In this document: positions 52,403 through 61,188 of the stretch, in pieces | How the letters are laid out: each line of letters starts with the position of its first letter | Position numbering within the stretch: the first letter of the stretch is position 1 | Virus record (IMG/VR): IMGVR_UViG_3300043391_000853 | Location: 85,818-149,817 of that record | Source: a virus | Lineage: Duplodnaviria; Caudoviricetes | Strand: one strand, 5' to 3' | Length of the DNA: 64,000 nt | Program-made: the position numbers and the translations under genes | The notes under the pieces: generated by a model | Seen by the model: the letters and a program-made list of their open reading frames with translations, nothing else | Databases searched by the model: none | Told to the model about the DNA's origin: nothing

Positions 52403-54661
52403 TTATAAATCCATGCCGTCACCTCTGCTCATATTGATGGATAATTCTGGAGACTTACGCTTAAGGAAGATTATAAGATCTCCAATATTCTTCAAGACGT
52501 TCGTTACCAGCTCTACCAGCTCAGGCAAATCTCCTCTACCGTACATCTCCTTAAACTTGTCTGTTTCCCAATGCAATAAAAACAGAATTCTGCCAAGTCG
52601 ATCCATAGCCTCGACCATAGACGGCAAATACTCGGATACCTTGTCGCCTACCGACACATACTTAGCCAAAGCTCCAATCATCTGCGTGTCGAAGATCTCT
52701 TTCTGTCCGTTCTGAGCCATGCGTACAGCGTCGTTAACATATTTGGGGTCGACTCCCTTAATTTCAGGCATCGTACCCAAGTCTTGACGAGTCGGGTTTC
52801 CTGTATAGCTATCCATGGTAGGTAGCGAGTTTTCTTGCCCTATACCTGCACTGGTGGACTGTCCAAACTCGTTAGTGTACGGCTGCTCCTCAAAGGGTTG
52901 AGGATATATGTCTCCGGTATAAGCCAATTTAACGTGACCTTTTTTTGAGAAGCCGGGGACAAGGCTATCGATGAGTGATGCCCCTTCTTTTTCGTCTAGC
53001 CCGATATCCGTAACCATCGCAATCTTGGCTTGAAGAGGGTCGTCGTATCTCTTCTTTGCTCCGTCTATATCAACGAAGTACTCACTACCGTTGGTGTGTA
53101 CAGTCATTGGGAAAATATTCTTATCTCTCAACATCCCGTGCAAGGTGCTTGGATACCCTGGTTCGCCTTTCACGAGTCTTTCTTTTTCCTCTTCAGCGTC
53201 GCGCTTCCGCTTGTCTACGTCTTCCTTCTCTTGTCTTGTAGACTTCGGGGAATTAAACGGATATAAAGGCATTTCGCAACGAAGATGAGACGCTGGAGAA
53301 ATCTTTAGTAGTTTATACCCGGCAGGTACATAAATCATCTTGTCCTTGTACTCAAGACGATCGCCCTGCTTCTTGGTCATCACCAGAATGACTTCCTGCA
53401 TTTTTTTAGGGTGATCGTAAAAGTTGCCTCTAGGTAGATCATGCACGCTTCCTGGCCTATCCCACTTACCTCCCATGTCACCTCTATCTTTCCAGTTGGC
53501 TTCAGTATAGGGCTCTACACTAATCCTACGAATACCTGAAGCATCCTTAAAATTGGCATTGATCCTAAATGGCTGCGTAGCTTTTAAGTTTTCATTGATC
53601 AATATGTACGTATTAGTGTACCCAGGCTTACCTTCGGCGGCATCTACCATCATCTTGTGGATGGTGGAGTAATCTTGTACCTTAATCTGGTCTTTAACAA
53701 AAACACCTTTATGGTCTTTGATGTAAGTTGTGCCGTCCTTAGAGTCGAGGTCGACAACTAGAGTGTCGTCTGTTGCAAAATCTTGCTGCAATTGCTTCGG
53801 TCTTACGAGCAATAGACCGTAGCGCAATCCTCCTAATCTCGTCACATAAGAATAGAAGCCTGACTCAGCAGGATTTATAAATTTCTTGAGATAGTCTACA
53901 GCACCAAAAGTCGACTTCTGGTCTGGTGCTCGATCGTCTACGATTACATAGCCTTGAGTTAGTAATGTTTCTTTGTCAGATTGGTTAAGCTTTTTGGCTT
54001 CTTCCTTGTCTGAGGTTTTCACTACCTTGACTAGATTTATCTTTTTTGTGGCTTTATCGGACTTGCGATACTTATCCCCGTCTTCAAGAGTAATGGCCTC
54101 GGCCACTTTTTCCATGGGGTAGAAACGTAGAACGGACTCGCAAAATTCTGAGTTTTTTTCAAGTAGGTCTGTAAAAGCCTGCTTTGTTACGTTGTCTGAT
54201 TCTTTGACGTAATCAATCACCGAGGCTATCGCATACCTTCCTGTTCTAGGAGGTACACTCATTTGCCGGTAATCTCCCTGGGTAGCATCCCGTAAAATAT
54301 CTGTTCTGCTTTCTTTGGAGTTTTCACCCAAACCTAAGAGTTCATCTTTAATAAACATCTCAGCAAAATCCTCGTTAAGAGGGTAAAACTGTTCGTTGTT
54401 CTTACTATAGAGCAAGTCTAGGTTTTTAACTTTACCGTTAATAAAAAAAGCAGGAACAAAGAGAATTTGTCCGCTCCTGGACCTAAAACCAAACACACCC
54501 AGAGCTTTCGTATTATCCTCATTCTTTTTTACAATTTCAAACCCTACCAGATAAGGAATTAAGTTTTTTAAAGTGTCCTGTAGTCGCTGATAAGCCAACT
54601 GAAAGAACGCTCCTTCAATTTGGTCGTCTGCCGCTTGTTTGGGTAAGAATGTATTGCGCAT
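52403..54661 (-). CDS. Large hypothetical head-module protein
   Basis: 752 aa, starts FLPKQAADD; also KQA, KVA, KIA, KLA sites; own promoter. Confidence 0.55.
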   Translation of the reverse strand: MRNTFLPKQAADDQIEGAFFQLAYQRLQDTLKNLIPYLVGFEIVKKNEDNTKALGVFGFRSRSGQILFVPAFFINGKVKNLDLLYSKNNEQFYPLNEDFAEMFIKDELLGLGENSKESRTDILRDATQGDYRQMSVPPRTGRYAIASVIDYVKESDNVTKQAFTDLLEKNSEFCESVLRFYPMEKVAEAITLEDGDKYRKSDKATKKINLVKVVKTSDKEEAKKLNQSDKETLLTQGYVIVDDRAPDQKSTFGAVDYLKKFINPAESGFYSYVTRLGGLRYGLLLVRPKQLQQDFATDDTLVVDLDSKDGTTYIKDHKGVFVKDQIKVQDYSTIHKMMVDAAEGKPGYTNTYILINENLKATQPFRINANFKDASGIRRISVEPYTEANWKDRGDMGGKWDRPGSVHDLPRGNFYDHPKKMQEVILVMTKKQGDRLEYKDKMIYVPAGYKLLKISPASHLRCEMPLYPFNSPKSTRQEKEDVDKRKRDAEEEKERLVKGEPGYPSTLHGMLRDKNIFPMTVHTNGSEYFVDIDGAKKRYDDPLQAKIAMVTDIGLDEKEGASLIDSLVPGFSKKGHVKLAYTGDIYPQPFEEQPYTNEFGQSTSAGIGQENSLPTMDSYTGNPTRQDLGTMPEIKGVDPKYVNDAVRMAQNGQKEIFDTQMIGALAKYVSVGDKVSEYLPSMVEAMDRLGRILFLLHWETDKFKEMYGRGDLPELVELVTNVLKNIGDLIIFLKRKSPELSINMSRGDGMDL

Positions 54662-54726: not shown

Positions 54727-56577
54727 TTAACTCTTTTCTCCGAAGCCTACACCGTAGGCTAGCCCTGGGATAGGGCTTGGTCCCTTTACATCTGAGGTCG
54801 CGCCTTTGTTAACCATATTTACAAACCTCTTGGCTAAATTGGTGCTGTTTAGTACATGCATCCAATCATCGTGATGTTCAGGAATGTCTACCAACCTAAC
54901 CATCACAGGCTCGAAGTTGGGAGGGTTATCGTGAACCAGTATCGACTCTATTCCATGTTCTTTCAGCTCATTTATAACTGCCGAGGTCACTTTCGTACCT
55001 ATTGTATAGTGCAGCTCTGTACGCTCCAGGTACTTCCCGTAAGCCAAGTCTAGGCGTAACTCCTTTGCTGCAGCTCTTGGGGTGTAATCCTTCTCTATAG
55101 CAGAGTATGACACTATTTGGTCGTGTGTATAATCTCCTAGACCTTCAGGGTCAGTAATTTTGACGTGATCTATTGCAGCTTTAGCGATAAGTTCAAAATT
55201 TCTTCTATTCACAGGAAGACCACTGTCGTCGAAGGCTTTTTTCATCGCCTGCATATAGTACTTCCTACCTTCTCCGATTCCTTTATATTTAACTACTTCT
55301 CTCGGATCCACCAAACCAGAACTAAGAGTCTGTCCTTGTTCGACCCTATCGCCTAGTTTCACGCCAGGTTCTTGCTCAATACCGATGTAGTGCTCTGTGT
55401 TGTTTACGGAGATGAAGTGTCCTCCTGCAGAGGCAGGCTCTAACTTTGTTATAAATCCGTCCTCCTGAGCTAGAGGGGCTCTACCTATAAAGGTTTTCGG
55501 TATGTTCGCCAGCTGATTAATCAGCTTGAATCCTTGCTGTCCTCCTAATGATGTTGCTGCTCCGCCTGAGTGTCTAGCCTTCATCGCGCTTTCCGTGAGC
55601 GGCTCTGCTACCGCTGTGCCTGCGACTAAGCCTATATAACTATCCATTGCAGCCATACCCTTTTCGCGGCGACCCACACACATCTGACAAAGACCTCCAG
55701 CATGGTGTTTCTTGTTAGACTGGCAGGTCATTGGGGACCTTATCATGATCTGCGTTATGTTTTTGCTAGCTAGATCGTTTAGCATTTTAGCAGAAACTTC
55801 GTTGTTCCTGTTGTAGCCTGCAACTGCTTTAGCCAGGAACGCCCCAATAGACTCTCTGTCTTTCACATCCAAGGTTATCCCGTTGAGTGTTTCGCAGTCG
55901 GATTCTATAATCTGCAGAGGCATCAAAGCTCTGGCGAACTGCTTCGACCCATAACCTCCTTGAGCTACCGATATTTTTTTAAGTACTTCTCCTGACCTGG
56001 TACCGAAAGAGGTGGCTAAGTACTCAGGCAACGTTAGACCTTCGGCATAAGAACTCTTGATGGGGATATCCATTTTAGGTTTCCCTTCCGCATCAACCAC
56101 AAATCCCTGAGTAGTTATAGTTCCTCTATATTGTGCAGGTGTCCCTCTAGAGCCGGCTAGAATAATTTTGGCTAGCGATTTATTTTGCTTTAACCCCTCA
56201 CCTAGAATTTCTTTCTCTATCAAAGACATCATGTCGTTGTAGTTATCGAAAATCTTTTTATCTTTAACTCCTTGAGTGTCGCTACCCTTTTCGACGGTTA
56301 CTTTAAAGCTCTCAAATTTATTCCAGAGCTTATCTTTATCTATAGGAGAAACCAGATCCTTGAGCGTTAGTGACGTCCCCTGTCTTGTAGCTACTTCGAA
56401 GCCTACCTTGGTGAGGTCGGATACTATCTGTGCGTAGTGCTCGGGAGCCTTCTCTGAAAGCTCAGCAAAAAGCTTGGCTATGCCCTTTTTGTCTAGAGTG
56501 ACATCTTCAACCAAAGCATGAAATTGTACGGGAGTAAAAAACTTTAATAACACCCGACCTACGGTGGTTATAGCCAT
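54727..56577 (-). CDS. rpoC: Phage multisubunit RNA polymerase, beta' C-terminal half
   Basis: TTVGR, AGSRG, PIKSSYAEGLTLPEY, bridge helix GTRSG...GGY, DCET and RSPMTC...LCQMC Zn site, trigger loop AEPLTESAMKARHSGG. Confidence 0.92.
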   Translation of the reverse strand: MAITTVGRVLLKFFTPVQFHALVEDVTLDKKGIAKLFAELSEKAPEHYAQIVSDLTKVGFEVATRQGTSLTLKDLVSPIDKDKLWNKFESFKVTVEKGSDTQGVKDKKIFDNYNDMMSLIEKEILGEGLKQNKSLAKIILAGSRGTPAQYRGTITTQGFVVDAEGKPKMDIPIKSSYAEGLTLPEYLATSFGTRSGEVLKKISVAQGGYGSKQFARALMPLQIIESDCETLNGITLDVKDRESIGAFLAKAVAGYNRNNEVSAKMLNDLASKNITQIMIRSPMTCQSNKKHHAGGLCQMCVGRREKGMAAMDSYIGLVAGTAVAEPLTESAMKARHSGGAATSLGGQQGFKLINQLANIPKTFIGRAPLAQEDGFITKLEPASAGGHFISVNNTEHYIGIEQEPGVKLGDRVEQGQTLSSGLVDPREVVKYKGIGEGRKYYMQAMKKAFDDSGLPVNRRNFELIAKAAIDHVKITDPEGLGDYTHDQIVSYSAIEKDYTPRAAAKELRLDLAYGKYLERTELHYTIGTKVTSAVINELKEHGIESILVHDNPPNFEPVMVRLVDIPEHHDDWMHVLNSTNLAKRFVNMVNKGATSDVKGPSPIPGLAYGVGFGEKS

Positions 56578-56978
56578 TATTTTTTAAGTTTTTTGATTAA
56601 GAGCTCGTAAAATGATGCCTGCTTTTGGTTTTGAGCATTATCACCAAACGACTGGGTCGTGGCCATATTCATATTCTTGTCCTTGGACCTTCCTGGAAGG
56701 AGCACATCCTCCTTTTCTTCTTCCAGCTTATTCATCACATCAAGCTCTTTAAACGCTCCTTCCATTATATCGCCTTCGGTATTGCTCTGCGTTTGCTGCT
56801 TCGAAGTGGACATGGTGACATCAGTGTCTTCCAGGTTTTCTTCTTCTCCGTTGTTTACGGTTGCTGTATCATTTAGATCTTGAGCAATCTTTCTTTTGAT
56901 GTAGCAGGCCAAGTCGTAGCTTTTCTCTCCTTTTTCAAAAGAGTTTAAATAAGCTGCAAGTTTTGTGAACTGTCCCAT
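56577..56978 (-). CDS. Acidic hypothetical protein with KxA motifs
   Basis: TKLAA, RKIAQ, QKQAS; TAATG coupling to the beta' C-half gene. Confidence 0.6.
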   Translation of the reverse strand: MGQFTKLAAYLNSFEKGEKSYDLACYIKRKIAQDLNDTATVNNGEEENLEDTDVTMSTSKQQTQSNTEGDIMEGAFKELDVMNKLEEEKEDVLLPGRSKDKNMNMATTQSFGDNAQNQKQASFYELLIKKLKK

Positions 56979-56990
56979 ATTATGTATAAA

Positions 56991-57932
56991 TTAGCCTCCC
57001 ATAGGGGCAGAGTATATACCTCCTCCGCCCATCATTCCTTGTTGGGCTTCCTGTGCTTGTTGCTGCTGTTCCTGTGTCTGCTTTTGTTGTTCGGACTCGG
57101 CTTTTGCTTTGGTCTGATCCATCTTTTGCTTATGCGTGTCTGCAAGCTGTTTGACCTTGAGTAGTGAGGCGGTAGCTGATCCTTTACCTATAAGATCTAA
57201 CAACTCTCTAACAGACAATGTCACCTTGACGTTATCTAGTTCGTTTTTGGCTTCTATAGCTGAAGCCTCTGCTTGCTGGGCGTCTTCGGCTGCCGGATCT
57301 TGTGGAGGGGTAGGCATTTCTTCTTGTCCTCCTAGCGCACCTAATCCTTGCTGCTGTGCAGCGGCGTACAGATCTTCGTCTGCTGCCTGGGCTTCCATTC
57401 CAGGTGGTTGTTGCGGTCCTCCCATACCCTGTTGGCCTCCCATGCTTTGTTGTAGCTCCTGTAACAGCTCGGACAGATGTTGCTCTCTCTGCTCTGTGGG
57501 CATGTTTTGTAATTTCGCTAGAATTGGAGCAATCTGTTGCTGAGCCTCAGGAGGCATCTGTTGTACAGCTGCCATTATTTCAGCCAGCAGTCCGTCGCTT
57601 GCGTCCCCTTGCCCTTGCTGTGGAGGCGCTCCTTGCGGCGGGGCTTGCTGTTGTGCAGCTTGAGGATCCTGGGGCGGCGCTCCTTGAGGAGGTGCCTGCT
57701 GTGGAGGGGCTCCTTGAGGAGGTGCTTGCTGTTGTGCAGCCTGGGGATCCTGTGGAGGAGGTGCTTGTTGCTGTTGTGCAGCTTGTGGATCCTGGGGAGG
57801 CGCTCCTTGCGGCGGGGCTTGCTGTTGAGCAACTGCAGGGTTAGGAACAAATGCACGCTTTTCTTTGGCTGTTTTGTTCAGGCCTCTGTTTGTTATTTTG
57901 TCGTAGTCTGCAAGCAAGTCAGCGATTTTCAT
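56991..57932 (-). CDS. Gln/Pro-rich low-complexity protein with N-terminal KxA cluster
   Basis: MKIAD...NKTAKEKRAF followed by QQAPPQGAPPQDPQAA repeats. Confidence 0.7.
   Translation of the reverse strand: MKIADLLADYDKITNRGLNKTAKEKRAFVPNPAVAQQQAPPQGAPPQDPQAAQQQQAPPPQDPQAAQQQAPPQGAPPQQAPPQGAPPQDPQAAQQQAPPQGAPPQQGQGDASDGLLAEIMAAVQQMPPEAQQQIAPILAKLQNMPTEQREQHLSELLQELQQSMGGQQGMGGPQQPPGMEAQAADEDLYAAAQQQGLGALGGQEEMPTPPQDPAAEDAQQAEASAIEAKNELDNVKVTLSVRELLDLIGKGSATASLLKVKQLADTHKQKMDQTKAKAESEQQKQTQEQQQQAQEAQQGMMGGGGIYSAPMGG
57615..57830. repeat. Coding tandem repeats (QQAPPQGAPPQDPQAA)
   Basis: Recurrent ggatcctgggg, gctccttg and gcttgctgttgtgcagc units. Confidence 0.85.
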
Positions 57933-58194: not shown

Positions 58195-61188
58195 TTATAC
58201 GTCTACTCGGTCTCCGACCGCAAGCTTTCCCGATAAAAAATCTTTGACTACTTCTTGAGCAGAAGAATACTTGATAGGTTTATTTTTATTGTCTTCAAAG
58301 CTGGCCGCGAACAGTCCCGTGGCTGCCTCGTTAGATGGAGTGAATATCGGGCTAAACGTCCTGTGGTAAATTAAGTTTTTACTCGGGAGCAGTTTTTCCT
58401 TCACTTCTTCTTTGGCTTCGTCGGAAGCAGGAAGCTGTACATTCAATTGGTCTCCGTCGTTATCTGCGCCGTAACCCTTGAAAACTAGGGGGTTCATTTT
58501 GATAGAGAAGTCCTTGGGATCAGGATTCATCTTTAAATACATCCCCTGAAAGTTGTACTTGGATAACTGCGGATCTCTAGTGACGATACCTGGGCGATCG
58601 GCCATCTCTTCATTTAGGGCCGTAAGAGCTAGTGGATGCTTGTGTTCAAGGTACTCCTTGGCTTTTGTTGCAGGTACACCCTGACGTACAAGTCTCCGTA
58701 CTATGAACGGTGAAAAAATACTCCAGGCTACCTGTTGAGGTATACTGGACTCATTTAGACCTAGTTGAGAGTCAGGCAGCAGCACAGCTCTTCCGACGAG
58801 GTCGATAGGTTTGTTGACCACCTTTGCCTGAAACATTGACTCTTTCGCTGATCCTCCTTGAAGTCCTAGAGCTGATGCCAGAAGTCCCTTGTATCCCTTC
58901 TCTACACTCTTCTGTGCCACAGGTTCGCCGAGACCATAAACAGCCTTAACACCATTATATATCTGTTTTCTGGCGGTGTTAAGAAGCTCCGGGTCCATGT
59001 CTTTGGAATCCTTTGCCTCTCCATAAGACTTATTAACCAGCATTAAATCTTTGTATAATTCGTTAACGTCAGCCGTGAGGGCCTGGTCTCCCTGGATCAT
59101 CACCGGCCTGTACTGTGCCGGAATAATTGGAACTTTAGATAAAAGCATGTCCTCAGGCTTTAGCCCGTTATGCTTTAGCATGGTTAGAAAGCTTAGGGCT
59201 TTAATTGCGTCATCCCTACCAGTCTTTCTTTTTGATTTTGCTGTGGCTGTAAGCTCTGCAATCTTTTTATCTAGATCAATATTTTTTAATTCTTTCTCAA
59301 GCCTTCCTGAAGCTATCGCCTCCTCATAAGCGACTTTTGTCATCTTTAAAAGCTTCCTTAAATGATCTTCAGCCATCGGATTGGCTATTCTGTGATGTAA
59401 GGCTATATGGTTGAAACTGTCACCGTGTATTCCTACAAGGGTAGGGTCAAATAGACCTCCGTCCTCTGCAATGATCTCATCCTTCTTTAATTTGTATGTG
59501 AGAGGTTCTTTAATCTCGCCATTGGACATGGCTACAACATCTTTGTCTGTCTGGGGCAGTACATGGAATTTTGAGCCTTCCTGTACAACATTAACTCCGG
59601 AGCCTTTAAGATGACCTATGAACTTATCAAAAATAAATGGTACCTTTGGTGTGGGGGGTGTGTGTCCTAATTTTACAGCTGTCCAGTATTCGTCATTCTT
59701 TGTTGCCCTGATCGTGGCTATATCTCTCAGTACGGCCTTGGCGTCATTTGACAAGGCTACCGTGGTAGCAAGATTCCCTATCCTTTTAGCTTTTTCGTGC
59801 GAGCCTGCCTTGGACGGCTGCATATTAATATCGTAGGATGTTGCAGCTGATCTGGCGGATATTTTGTCTTCGGCAATGTGGTGCAGTCTGTTGAAGTAGA
59901 GCGGGCCTGTAAGCACGTCAATGTGCCTGCCTGAAGTCGGATCGTACAGCTTCTCGGTTTCACTAACTCCATGTTTTTCTAGCACGTCGATCACCTTTTG
60001 AATAGATGAGCCTTCTGTGAAGGCTGTGCTGTGTATGGTTGTACCTAGCTTTTCAGCGAGCTTGCCTAGACCTATGGTACTGACCATGCCAGGGGCTACA
60101 CGAGATGTAATACTCATAGTATTGAGAAGTACATCTACAGGTTTACCGGAAGCGTCTTGAGGCATCTGTGTGTCTGGAACTATACGCACAACTCCCTTTG
60201 CACCGAAGGGCATATTGAGCTTATCTGCATTACTCATAGGTCTGCGCGTTTTGATCGTTACCGCAAGCATCTTGCCTCCTGCGGATACGTCTGTAACTTC
60301 GCCGTCGTACTCATACTCCCATGGAACGGATATGTCGGTATAGGCGTTACGGATGACCTTCGCCAGCTTGCCTAGCTGAATATCTAGAGACTTTAATGTT
60401 TTTGGCTGCATCGCCAGTATCACAGGATCGCCATGCTTGAGTATCGTGCCTTTCTTGACTACCCCGTTGCTGGAGATGTTGCCGAGTTGGTCGTTGTAGT
60501 ACTTGTTAGGGAACAGTGAGATAAACTTATCCTTGTCGGTCTCTACGCCTCTGCCTGTCTCCATACGTACAGGAATGATCTGCTCTCCTTCAAGCTTCTT
60601 GGCTGCCGTCTCGGAAATGACTAGAGCATCTTCAAAGTTCAGAGAACGATAGGGCATGATGGCTGTCTTGAGATTCATTCCCAAGGCCAATGTACCTTCA
60701 GAGTCTGAGTGATTCGAAGTGGCCAGTAGCCCTCCTTCCTTCACTTTGTCTCCGACCTTTACAGTAGACGTATGGTGCAAGAAGCTGTCTCGACCTATGA
60801 TGTAATTATTATATTTGTCGTGAAGATGGTCGTTACCTTCCTTGTCCTTGATAGTGATGTGGTCTTCGCTGATACCAGAGACTGTCCCGGCTAGTCTGGA
60901 GTTTACAGTAACAAGCTTGCCGAATTGTTGATTAAAGCTTTCTTTTGCTCCTTTGGCTGCCGCCTGGATCAATGGAGCTTCTCTATTTACAAGGGTCATT
61001 GCCTGGAGTGAGGCCTTGTCTCCGATAAGTACACGGGCACCTGACACAGAACTGAGGTTAGGTATGAGGTTGGTGACAGGGCTGAAAAACTGGGAAGGAT
61101 CCAGGATGGTATACTTGGCCTTTAGCGAGCTCGGTACCTTTTTAAGCTTTCCTTCAACAAGTGCGAACTTTTGTTTATTTATCGACAT
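58195..61188 (-). CDS. rpoBC: Phage multisubunit RNA polymerase: beta C-terminal half fused to beta' N-terminal half
   Basis: Beta motifs NLIP, LALGMN...NFEDA, ADK...GAKGVV, VDVLLN...SR, LHHIAEDKISAR; then beta' motifs SNGEIKEP, GGLFD, PIIPAQYRP, GRAV, TRDPQL, GADNDGDQ. Confidence 0.93.
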   Translation of the reverse strand: MSINKQKFALVEGKLKKVPSSLKAKYTILDPSQFFSPVTNLIPNLSSVSGARVLIGDKASLQAMTLVNREAPLIQAAAKGAKESFNQQFGKLVTVNSRLAGTVSGISEDHITIKDKEGNDHLHDKYNNYIIGRDSFLHHTSTVKVGDKVKEGGLLATSNHSDSEGTLALGMNLKTAIMPYRSLNFEDALVISETAAKKLEGEQIIPVRMETGRGVETDKDKFISLFPNKYYNDQLGNISSNGVVKKGTILKHGDPVILAMQPKTLKSLDIQLGKLAKVIRNAYTDISVPWEYEYDGEVTDVSAGGKMLAVTIKTRRPMSNADKLNMPFGAKGVVRIVPDTQMPQDASGKPVDVLLNTMSITSRVAPGMVSTIGLGKLAEKLGTTIHSTAFTEGSSIQKVIDVLEKHGVSETEKLYDPTSGRHIDVLTGPLYFNRLHHIAEDKISARSAATSYDINMQPSKAGSHEKAKRIGNLATTVALSNDAKAVLRDIATIRATKNDEYWTAVKLGHTPPTPKVPFIFDKFIGHLKGSGVNVVQEGSKFHVLPQTDKDVVAMSNGEIKEPLTYKLKKDEIIAEDGGLFDPTLVGIHGDSFNHIALHHRIANPMAEDHLRKLLKMTKVAYEEAIASGRLEKELKNIDLDKKIAELTATAKSKRKTGRDDAIKALSFLTMLKHNGLKPEDMLLSKVPIIPAQYRPVMIQGDQALTADVNELYKDLMLVNKSYGEAKDSKDMDPELLNTARKQIYNGVKAVYGLGEPVAQKSVEKGYKGLLASALGLQGGSAKESMFQAKVVNKPIDLVGRAVLLPDSQLGLNESSIPQQVAWSIFSPFIVRRLVRQGVPATKAKEYLEHKHPLALTALNEEMADRPGIVTRDPQLSKYNFQGMYLKMNPDPKDFSIKMNPLVFKGYGADNDGDQLNVQLPASDEAKEEVKEKLLPSKNLIYHRTFSPIFTPSNEAATGLFAASFEDNKNKPIKYSSAQEVVKDFLSGKLAVGDRVDV

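Follow-up and report, generated by a model that had tools for sequence, protein, structure and literature searches.

Salmonella phage Arash (OQ632216) encodes an RNA polymerase (RNAP) consisting of a beta-beta'N fusion (gp206), a beta'C chain (gp216) and the sigma proteins gp10/gp196, and in its purified virions gp206 is the protein with most spectra, gp216 and the sigma protein gp10 are abundant, and gp218 is also detected (PMC10585845). Arash is the one studied member of its family, and it has been studied by proteomics alone (PMC10585845); a literature search found no paper dealing with the RNAP active site of this Arash-like family. In multisubunit RNAPs, residues R425, N458 and Q929 of beta' (Escherichia coli numbering, used hereafter for E. 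coli residues) are called universally conserved and able to contact the 2'-hydroxyl (2'-OH) of the nucleoside triphosphate (NTP) (Mäkinen et al., PMC7862312). Here, the RNAP genes found in a window of 64,000 nucleotides, which is the final 64 kb of the 149,817-bp IMG/VR phage contig IMGVR_UViG_3300043391_000853 (completeness 76% according to CheckV), are analysed with regard to this triad, of which they keep the Arg and lack both the Asn and the Gln. The source phage is uncultured and has a genome of ~190 kb.

The window encodes a 997-residue chain that joins the C-terminal half of beta to the N-terminal half of beta', as well as a 616-residue beta'C chain, which are, respectively, 31.6% identical to Arash gp206 over 98% of the length and 26.7% identical to gp216. 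Arash is the nearest cultured relative, followed by Vibrio phages D69, D148 and D181. According to BLASTP the fusion covers E. coli beta from ~649 to its C-terminus and then beta' up to ~550, ending after the catalytic loop, while the 616-residue chain picks up at beta' ~572, which is the layout of the Arash-like family. The fusion scores 151.7 bits with Rpb2_6 (Pfam cut-off 23.4), 54.8 with Rpb1_2 (cut-off 25.3) and 39.5 with Rpb1_1, the cut-off for the Rpb1_5 match of beta'C being 28.5 bits. When both chains were compared with all PDB chains by phmmer, their best matches were bacterial enzymes, with E-values of 2.5e-41 (beta) and 3.5e-35 (beta') for the fusion. The 997-residue layout recurs, at no less than 52% identity, in over 120 clusters (formed at 90% identity) whose contigs measure 150-290 kb. 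The wider metagenomic family comprises 1433 representative clusters at E < 1e-30 in a HMMER scan, and many of its members reach 1450-2900 residues through fusion of the whole beta, through inserted inteins or through the two combined.

Likenesses to Arash include the separate beta'C, a sigma region-2 protein, a gp218-like neighbour and the loss of Asn458 (the Arash loop reads AADYDGD). On the contrary, Arash fuses the whole beta in a chain of 1525 residues, whereas in the window phage the N-terminal part of beta would be a separate small gene, judging from its relatives; moreover, Arash keeps NRAPTL(M), the trigger-loop Gln (EVLTQ) and a Tyr at 461. With the bacterial RNAPs of E. coli and Thermus thermophilus the window enzyme shares the two-barrel site with its Asp triad in the DxDGD loop, the Lys pair, the Glu-Asp (ED) pair, R425, R731, the bridge helix and the trigger-loop Met and His, and it differs from them in the way the chains are divided and fused and in lacking the beta' N-terminal zinc finger. 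This finger is gone because the N-terminus of beta' (window 59280-59570, minus strand; fusion residues ~540-636) is shortened from ~190 to ~100 residues and contains no cysteine, while in beta'C the cysteines of the second zinc site (C228, C285, C297 and C300) are retained and invariant in the family alignment.

Motifs were placed by BLASTP against E. coli K-12 RpoC and RpoB, by phmmer against the PDB and, for the family, by MAFFT/hmmalign, and they stay in register across these alignments, no shift being found; the correspondence is one of homology and does not come from short motifs matching by chance. A preliminary description of the window had read the catalytic loop as GADNDGD in place of NADFDGD with its three Asp kept, the Arg loop as TRDPQLS in place of NRAPTLH with its Arg kept, the beta motif as PFGAKG in place of RHGNKG with both lysines and the ED pair kept, and the trigger loop as having exchanged Gln for Glu with Met and His kept; all these assignments stand. 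Retained residues are D909/D911/D913 (=D460/D462/D464), R871 (=R425), K323 (=K1065), K331 (=K1073), E186-D187 (=E813-D814), M332 (=M932) and H336 (=H936), to which further NTP-binding residues are added (R678, R1106, H1237 and K1242 of beta, and R731 of beta'). Departures from E. coli are N458G (residue G907) and F461N (N910) in the catalytic loop, T428Q (Q874) and H430S (S876) in the Arg loop, Q929E (E329) and R933K (K333) in the trigger loop, and P327/F328 in place of beta R1069/H1070.

Conservation was evaluated on 267 fusion homologues aligned to a family profile, and on 120 near plus 120 Arash-side clusters for beta'C. The position of R425 is Arg in all 252 aligned sequences, and K323, K331 and D187 are equally constant (237/237, 252/252 and 235/235), with E186 present in 225 of 235. 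The invariant first shell is made up of R425, the Asp triad, K1065, K1073, D814, R678, R1106 and the trigger-loop His, the exceptions in the Asp triad being intein junctions, and, in general, metal-binding, phosphate-binding and base-stacking residues are invariant or nearly so in ~250 relatives at 35-100% identity. The expectation of the preliminary description that the enzyme is probably active thus gains support from sequence conservation. The R933 position behaves differently, being Lys in the subclade of the window (window 55594-55596 region), whereas outgroups and Arash have Asn, Ser or Gly, so that this phosphate contact lacks conservation within the family. In relatives of both chains, four active-site spots were also seen to harbour inteins, which contain LAGLIDADG and Hint domains: immediately ahead of the lysine motif PFGAKG (insertion after 324), within the DxDGD loop (after 909-915), right after the trigger-loop His (ARH/C, the slash marking the junction) and in the bridge helix (GGYG/C); some 22 of 150 family representatives have no uninterrupted DxDGD, most probably due to inteins.

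The preliminary description had also stated that two of the three sugar contacts differ. Both are indeed replaced, and yet the two changes differ in kind. Residue 907, at the place of N458, is hypervariable in the family (Gly in 140 sequences, Asn in 81, Thr in 13, Ala in 13 and Ser in 4), as is residue 910 at that of F461 (Phe 82, Ser 68, Asn 30, Leu 26, His 19). On a tree of 233 sequences at least 48 state changes are counted at 458, at least 45 at F461 and at least 44 at A459, compared with at least eight at H430. In sequences outside the subclade, the canonical trigger-loop Gln is found together with each of Gly, Ala, Ser and Asn at 458. Among cultured phages the catalytic loop reads NADFDGD in PhiPA3 (gp054) and Rhizobium phages, NADHDGD in Vibrio phage 1.031.O, NLDYDGD in YerA41, and in D148 the same as in Arash. 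Given the number of changes at 458, Gly there is to be taken as a tolerated state and not as a specific adaptation; the loss of Asn458 is evidently harmless, and the Asn dispensable, in this phage family, as far as its distribution tells.

The replacement of Q929 is a single, old and stable change. In the 120 nearest beta'C clusters the position is Glu in 109, Gln in nine and Asn in two, with two changes on a tree of 116 sequences. The nine nearest outgroup clusters (50-56% identity) all have Gln, as do three loci at 44-47% and 119 of the 120 Arash-side clusters; Gln is likewise kept in AR9 gp154, EP_H11 (Escherichia), Carin-5 (Cobetia), RP13 (Ralstonia), YerA41 and Arash, its loss being seen in none of the cultured-phage polymerases checked. 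Since Gln is the state of the outgroups, of all but one of the Arash-side clusters and of the cultured phages checked, Glu is the single derived state of the subclade of the window, whose members have 64% identity or more to the 997-residue fusion. Hence, regarding whether the substitutions are clade-wide, Q929E is fixed throughout the subclade, in contrast to Gly at 458, which varies across the wider family.

Q929E is accompanied by a signature that, counted in 77 sequences of the subclade, is fixed in 75-77 of them. In the Arg loop it consists of T870-R-D-P-Q874-L-S876, in which Q874 (T428Q) and S876 (H430S) are fixed in this subclade alone, while in the catalytic loop it comprises Y906, G907 (75/77) and either Gly or Ala at 908, with residue 910 being Ser, Cys or Asn. 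Residue 812 of the fusion is Asn in 75 of the 77, whereas 130 of the 135 further sequences of the family have Asp. On contigs and loci where both chains could be read, S876 always occurs with E329 and H876 with Q329, and one lineage combines N876 with N329. This pairing is based on ~25 loci or contigs (two IMG/VR scans gave 8 and 17 loci) that are mostly close relatives from few lineages, and co-evolution of 430 and 929 is, because the independent events are few, suggested rather than demonstrated. On this sequence record, Q929E is an old and stably kept change of the subclade, co-fixed with H430S, T428Q and D812N, and it is tempting to read D812N and the neighbouring changes as compensation. 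The subclade-specific Q929E with its co-fixed partners is new here, being unmentioned in the papers found.

What such replacements may imply can be approached from single substitutions in E. coli RNAP, evaluated as selectivity for GTP over 2'dGTP (PMC7862312). R425 is the main determinant of 2'-OH discrimination, R425K lowering selectivity 17-fold at binding and 25-fold at incorporation, whereas N458S lowers it ~4-fold at binding and raises it 1.5-fold at incorporation, and Q929M lowers it 30-fold at binding and raises it 4-fold at incorporation (PMC7862312). In yeast RNA polymerase II (Pol II) Rpb1, Q1078 and N479 occupy the same structural positions at which the phage subclade carries Glu and Gly; yeast does not survive with Q1078E, Q1078A or Q1078N, whereas N479S is viable as a strongly defective loss-of-function allele, and functional interdependence has been described for Q1078, N1082 and N479 (PMC3325174).

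Taking all this into account, both chains would be the large catalytic chains of the single bacterial-type DNA-dependent RNAP of this phage, a member of the Arash-like family, which is probably active and uses ordinary ribonucleoside triphosphates (rNTPs) with a remodelled second shell around the site. Sugar selection would rest mainly on the conserved Arg871, and, because this Arg is kept, most of the discrimination against 2'-deoxynucleoside triphosphates (2'-dNTPs) should be preserved; the other parts of the ribose pocket have presumably been rebuilt in the subclade. E329 would most plausibly accept hydrogen bonds from the 3'/2'-OH of the NTP, as the Gln amide does, accompanied by four changes (T428Q, H430S, replacement of F461 by a small polar residue, and D812N). 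While Glu at 929 can remain an acceptor of hydrogen bonds for the hydroxyls of the ribose, it brings an extra negative charge close to the triphosphate and the metals. Several points weigh against this explanation: the Pol II equivalent of Q929E, Q1078E, is inviable (PMC3325174), and the cut in binding selectivity by Q929M is large (PMC7862312), so that Glu at 929 is not obviously neutral; the N-terminal piece of beta is missing from the contig, which is 76% complete; and packaging of the enzyme in virions, considered below, would be carried over from a homologue that is 31% identical.

A different view would take the remodelled pocket, with Glu, no Asn458 and Gln874/Ser876, as an adaptation that alters sugar selectivity, whether by relaxing or tightening discrimination against 2'-dNTPs or by handling 3'-deoxy or 2'-modified nucleotides differently, for instance to match the nucleotide pools of the infected cell or to resist a defence based on nucleotide analogues. 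Considering that (i) two of the three ribose contacts regarded as universal are replaced (PMC7862312), (ii) the Gln-to-Glu change is unique to the subclade, old and strictly kept with co-fixed partners, which looks like selection and not drift, and (iii) the context must have adjusted, the same replacement being lethal in Pol II, such a view deserves attention. Nonetheless, it is considered rather unlikely, as R425, to which most discrimination in E. coli is due, is invariant, Glu accepts the same hydroxyl hydrogen bonds as Gln, other members of the family combine a freely varying position 458 with Gln929, and no genomic sign of an unusual nucleotide chemistry was found, although none was sought.

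The chains might also be a catalytically dead, RNAP-derived structural or DNA-binding component of the virion, in line with the abundance of the homologue in Arash virions, the divergence of several second-shell residues and of the bridge helix, and the lost zinc finger of beta'. This possibility appears very improbable in view of the invariance of all first-shell catalytic residues over the range of relatives described above, of the enzyme being the sole RNAP set in complete relatives, and of the relatives' inteins occupying active-site motifs, the typical lodging of inteins in essential enzymes. It is scarcely credible that the substitutions are an artefact of alignment, with the true equivalents of N458 and Q929 lying elsewhere, since BLASTP, phmmer and MAFFT/hmmalign agree without gaps through the four motifs. 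An active RNAP with a rebuilt ribose pocket is therefore retained as the preferred reading. In addition, action of the RNAP chains as a DNA polymerase was considered unlikely, because the contig contains a separate, divergent family-A-like polymerase ORF (open reading frame). This 916-residue ORF (contig 54854-55786, minus strand) adjoins the sigma ORF described below and gives two sub-threshold matches to family-A DNA polymerases, which are repeated in two complete relatives.

The features of the locus are collected in Table 1. Comparison of the neighbouring ORFs with Pfam and PHROG gave nothing informative; in one relative (L010:13020-14465, plus strand) a 481-residue ORF that contains DUF7487 and weakly matches the Mom family lies between the RNAP genes, and it has no counterpart in the window interval. 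A sigma-70 region-2 ORF of 185 residues (Sigma70_r2, 43.1 bits) is located on the same contig outside the window (contig 57280-57465, minus strand), relatives having one likewise, and the RNAP is predicted to work with this sigma-like protein.

Table 1. RNAP genes, active-site motifs and neighbouring ORFs of the window (window positions)
Feature	Position	Strand	Basis or correspondence
beta(C-half)-beta'(N-half) fusion subunit, 997 residues (P0001)	58195..61188	-	both double-psi beta-barrels; Pfam, phmmer and Arash gp206 homology
Catalytic Mg loop GADNDGD, residues 907-913	58450..58470	-	E. coli beta' N458-D464 (NADFDGD)
Arg loop TRDPQLS, residues 870-876	58561..58581	-	beta' N424-H430 (NRAPTLH)
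N812 codon	58753..58755	-	column of E. coli beta' H364
beta motif PFGAKG	60193..60210	-	E. coli GRHGNKG; K323 just upstream in DKLN
beta E186-D187 (Mg-B/NTP site)	60628..60633	-	E. coli E813-D814
beta'C subunit, 616 residues, with bridge helix, trigger loop and second zinc-site cysteines	54727..56577	-	Rpb1_5 53.9 bits; PDB phmmer E 9e-34
Trigger-loop N-terminal arm EPLTESAMKARH	55570..55605	-	aligns column by column with E. coli EPGTQLTMRTFH
Bridge-helix region, beta'C residues ~191-216	55930..56007	-	aligns to E. coli beta' 777-802, divergent
752-residue ORF downstream of beta'C, weak Arash gp218 homologue	52403..54661	-	tblastn E 2.7e-9, 7.7e-7; syntenic context
133-residue ORF between the RNAP genes	56577-56978		no family match
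313-residue ORF between the RNAP genes	56991-57932		no family match

The N-terminal half of beta was not found in the contig by tblastn with the N-terminus of Arash gp206, by phmmer with E. coli beta 1-660 or with Pfam Rpb2_1 and Rpb2_3. In complete relatives the fork domain Rpb2_3 occurs in an ORF of 237-270 residues located 14-15 kb upstream of the fusion gene, a position that here would fall beyond the contig end. The piece is far smaller than the part of bacterial beta, ~640 residues, lying ahead of the point where the fusion begins. A 236-residue ORF immediately upstream of the fusion gene in one relative (L045) was evaluated as a candidate for it and rejected. Complete relatives have a single Rpb2_6 match per genome, and therefore one RNAP set.

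The RNAPs of the jumbo phages phiKZ and AR9 (PMC7598289) resemble the enzyme of the window in being phage-encoded, derived from beta and beta' and split in non-cellular ways, and those phages package one of their sets in virions. They differ in having two paralogous sets and no sigma, as compared to one set and a sigma-like ORF here, and are more distant, with PHROG matches of 1e-8 to 1e-17 versus 1e-44 for unnamed families. The enzyme is thus not of the phiKZ/AR9 type, as there is one set, a sigma-like partner and a much closer similarity to bacterial enzymes. AR9 gp270, the non-virion beta'N, is annotated as two joined pieces around an HNH homing-endonuclease ORF near the catalytic loop, and a motif scan of its locus was empty because the gene is split by this ORF. 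Packaging of the RNAP of the window in virions is plausible by analogy, since the Arash RNAP chains occur in virions and a gp218-like ORF adjoins beta'C; the enzyme would probably be carried by the particle.

Mechanistic studies of sugar selection take R425, N458 and Q929 to be universal. In this family Asn458 proves to be freely exchangeable in nature, while a large and successful subclade has swapped the trigger-loop Gln for Glu together with a small set of co-fixed neighbours. Q929E is of moderate interest to those concerned with RNAP mechanism, the position being conserved even in AR9 and the change lethal in yeast. Enzymes of the Glu and Gln types, at ~50-55% identity, form a natural pair for testing each contact and its compensating changes. 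RNAPs of the subclade might conceivably read the NTP ribose through Arg, the trigger-loop Glu and the new Arg-loop Gln, with a measurably different sugar selectivity; doubtful as this is, it would, if true, make them a naturally occurring exception to the supposedly universal triad and would reveal how a change lethal in Pol II is accommodated, in an RNAP family that is very abundant in metagenomes and is probably injected with the DNA.

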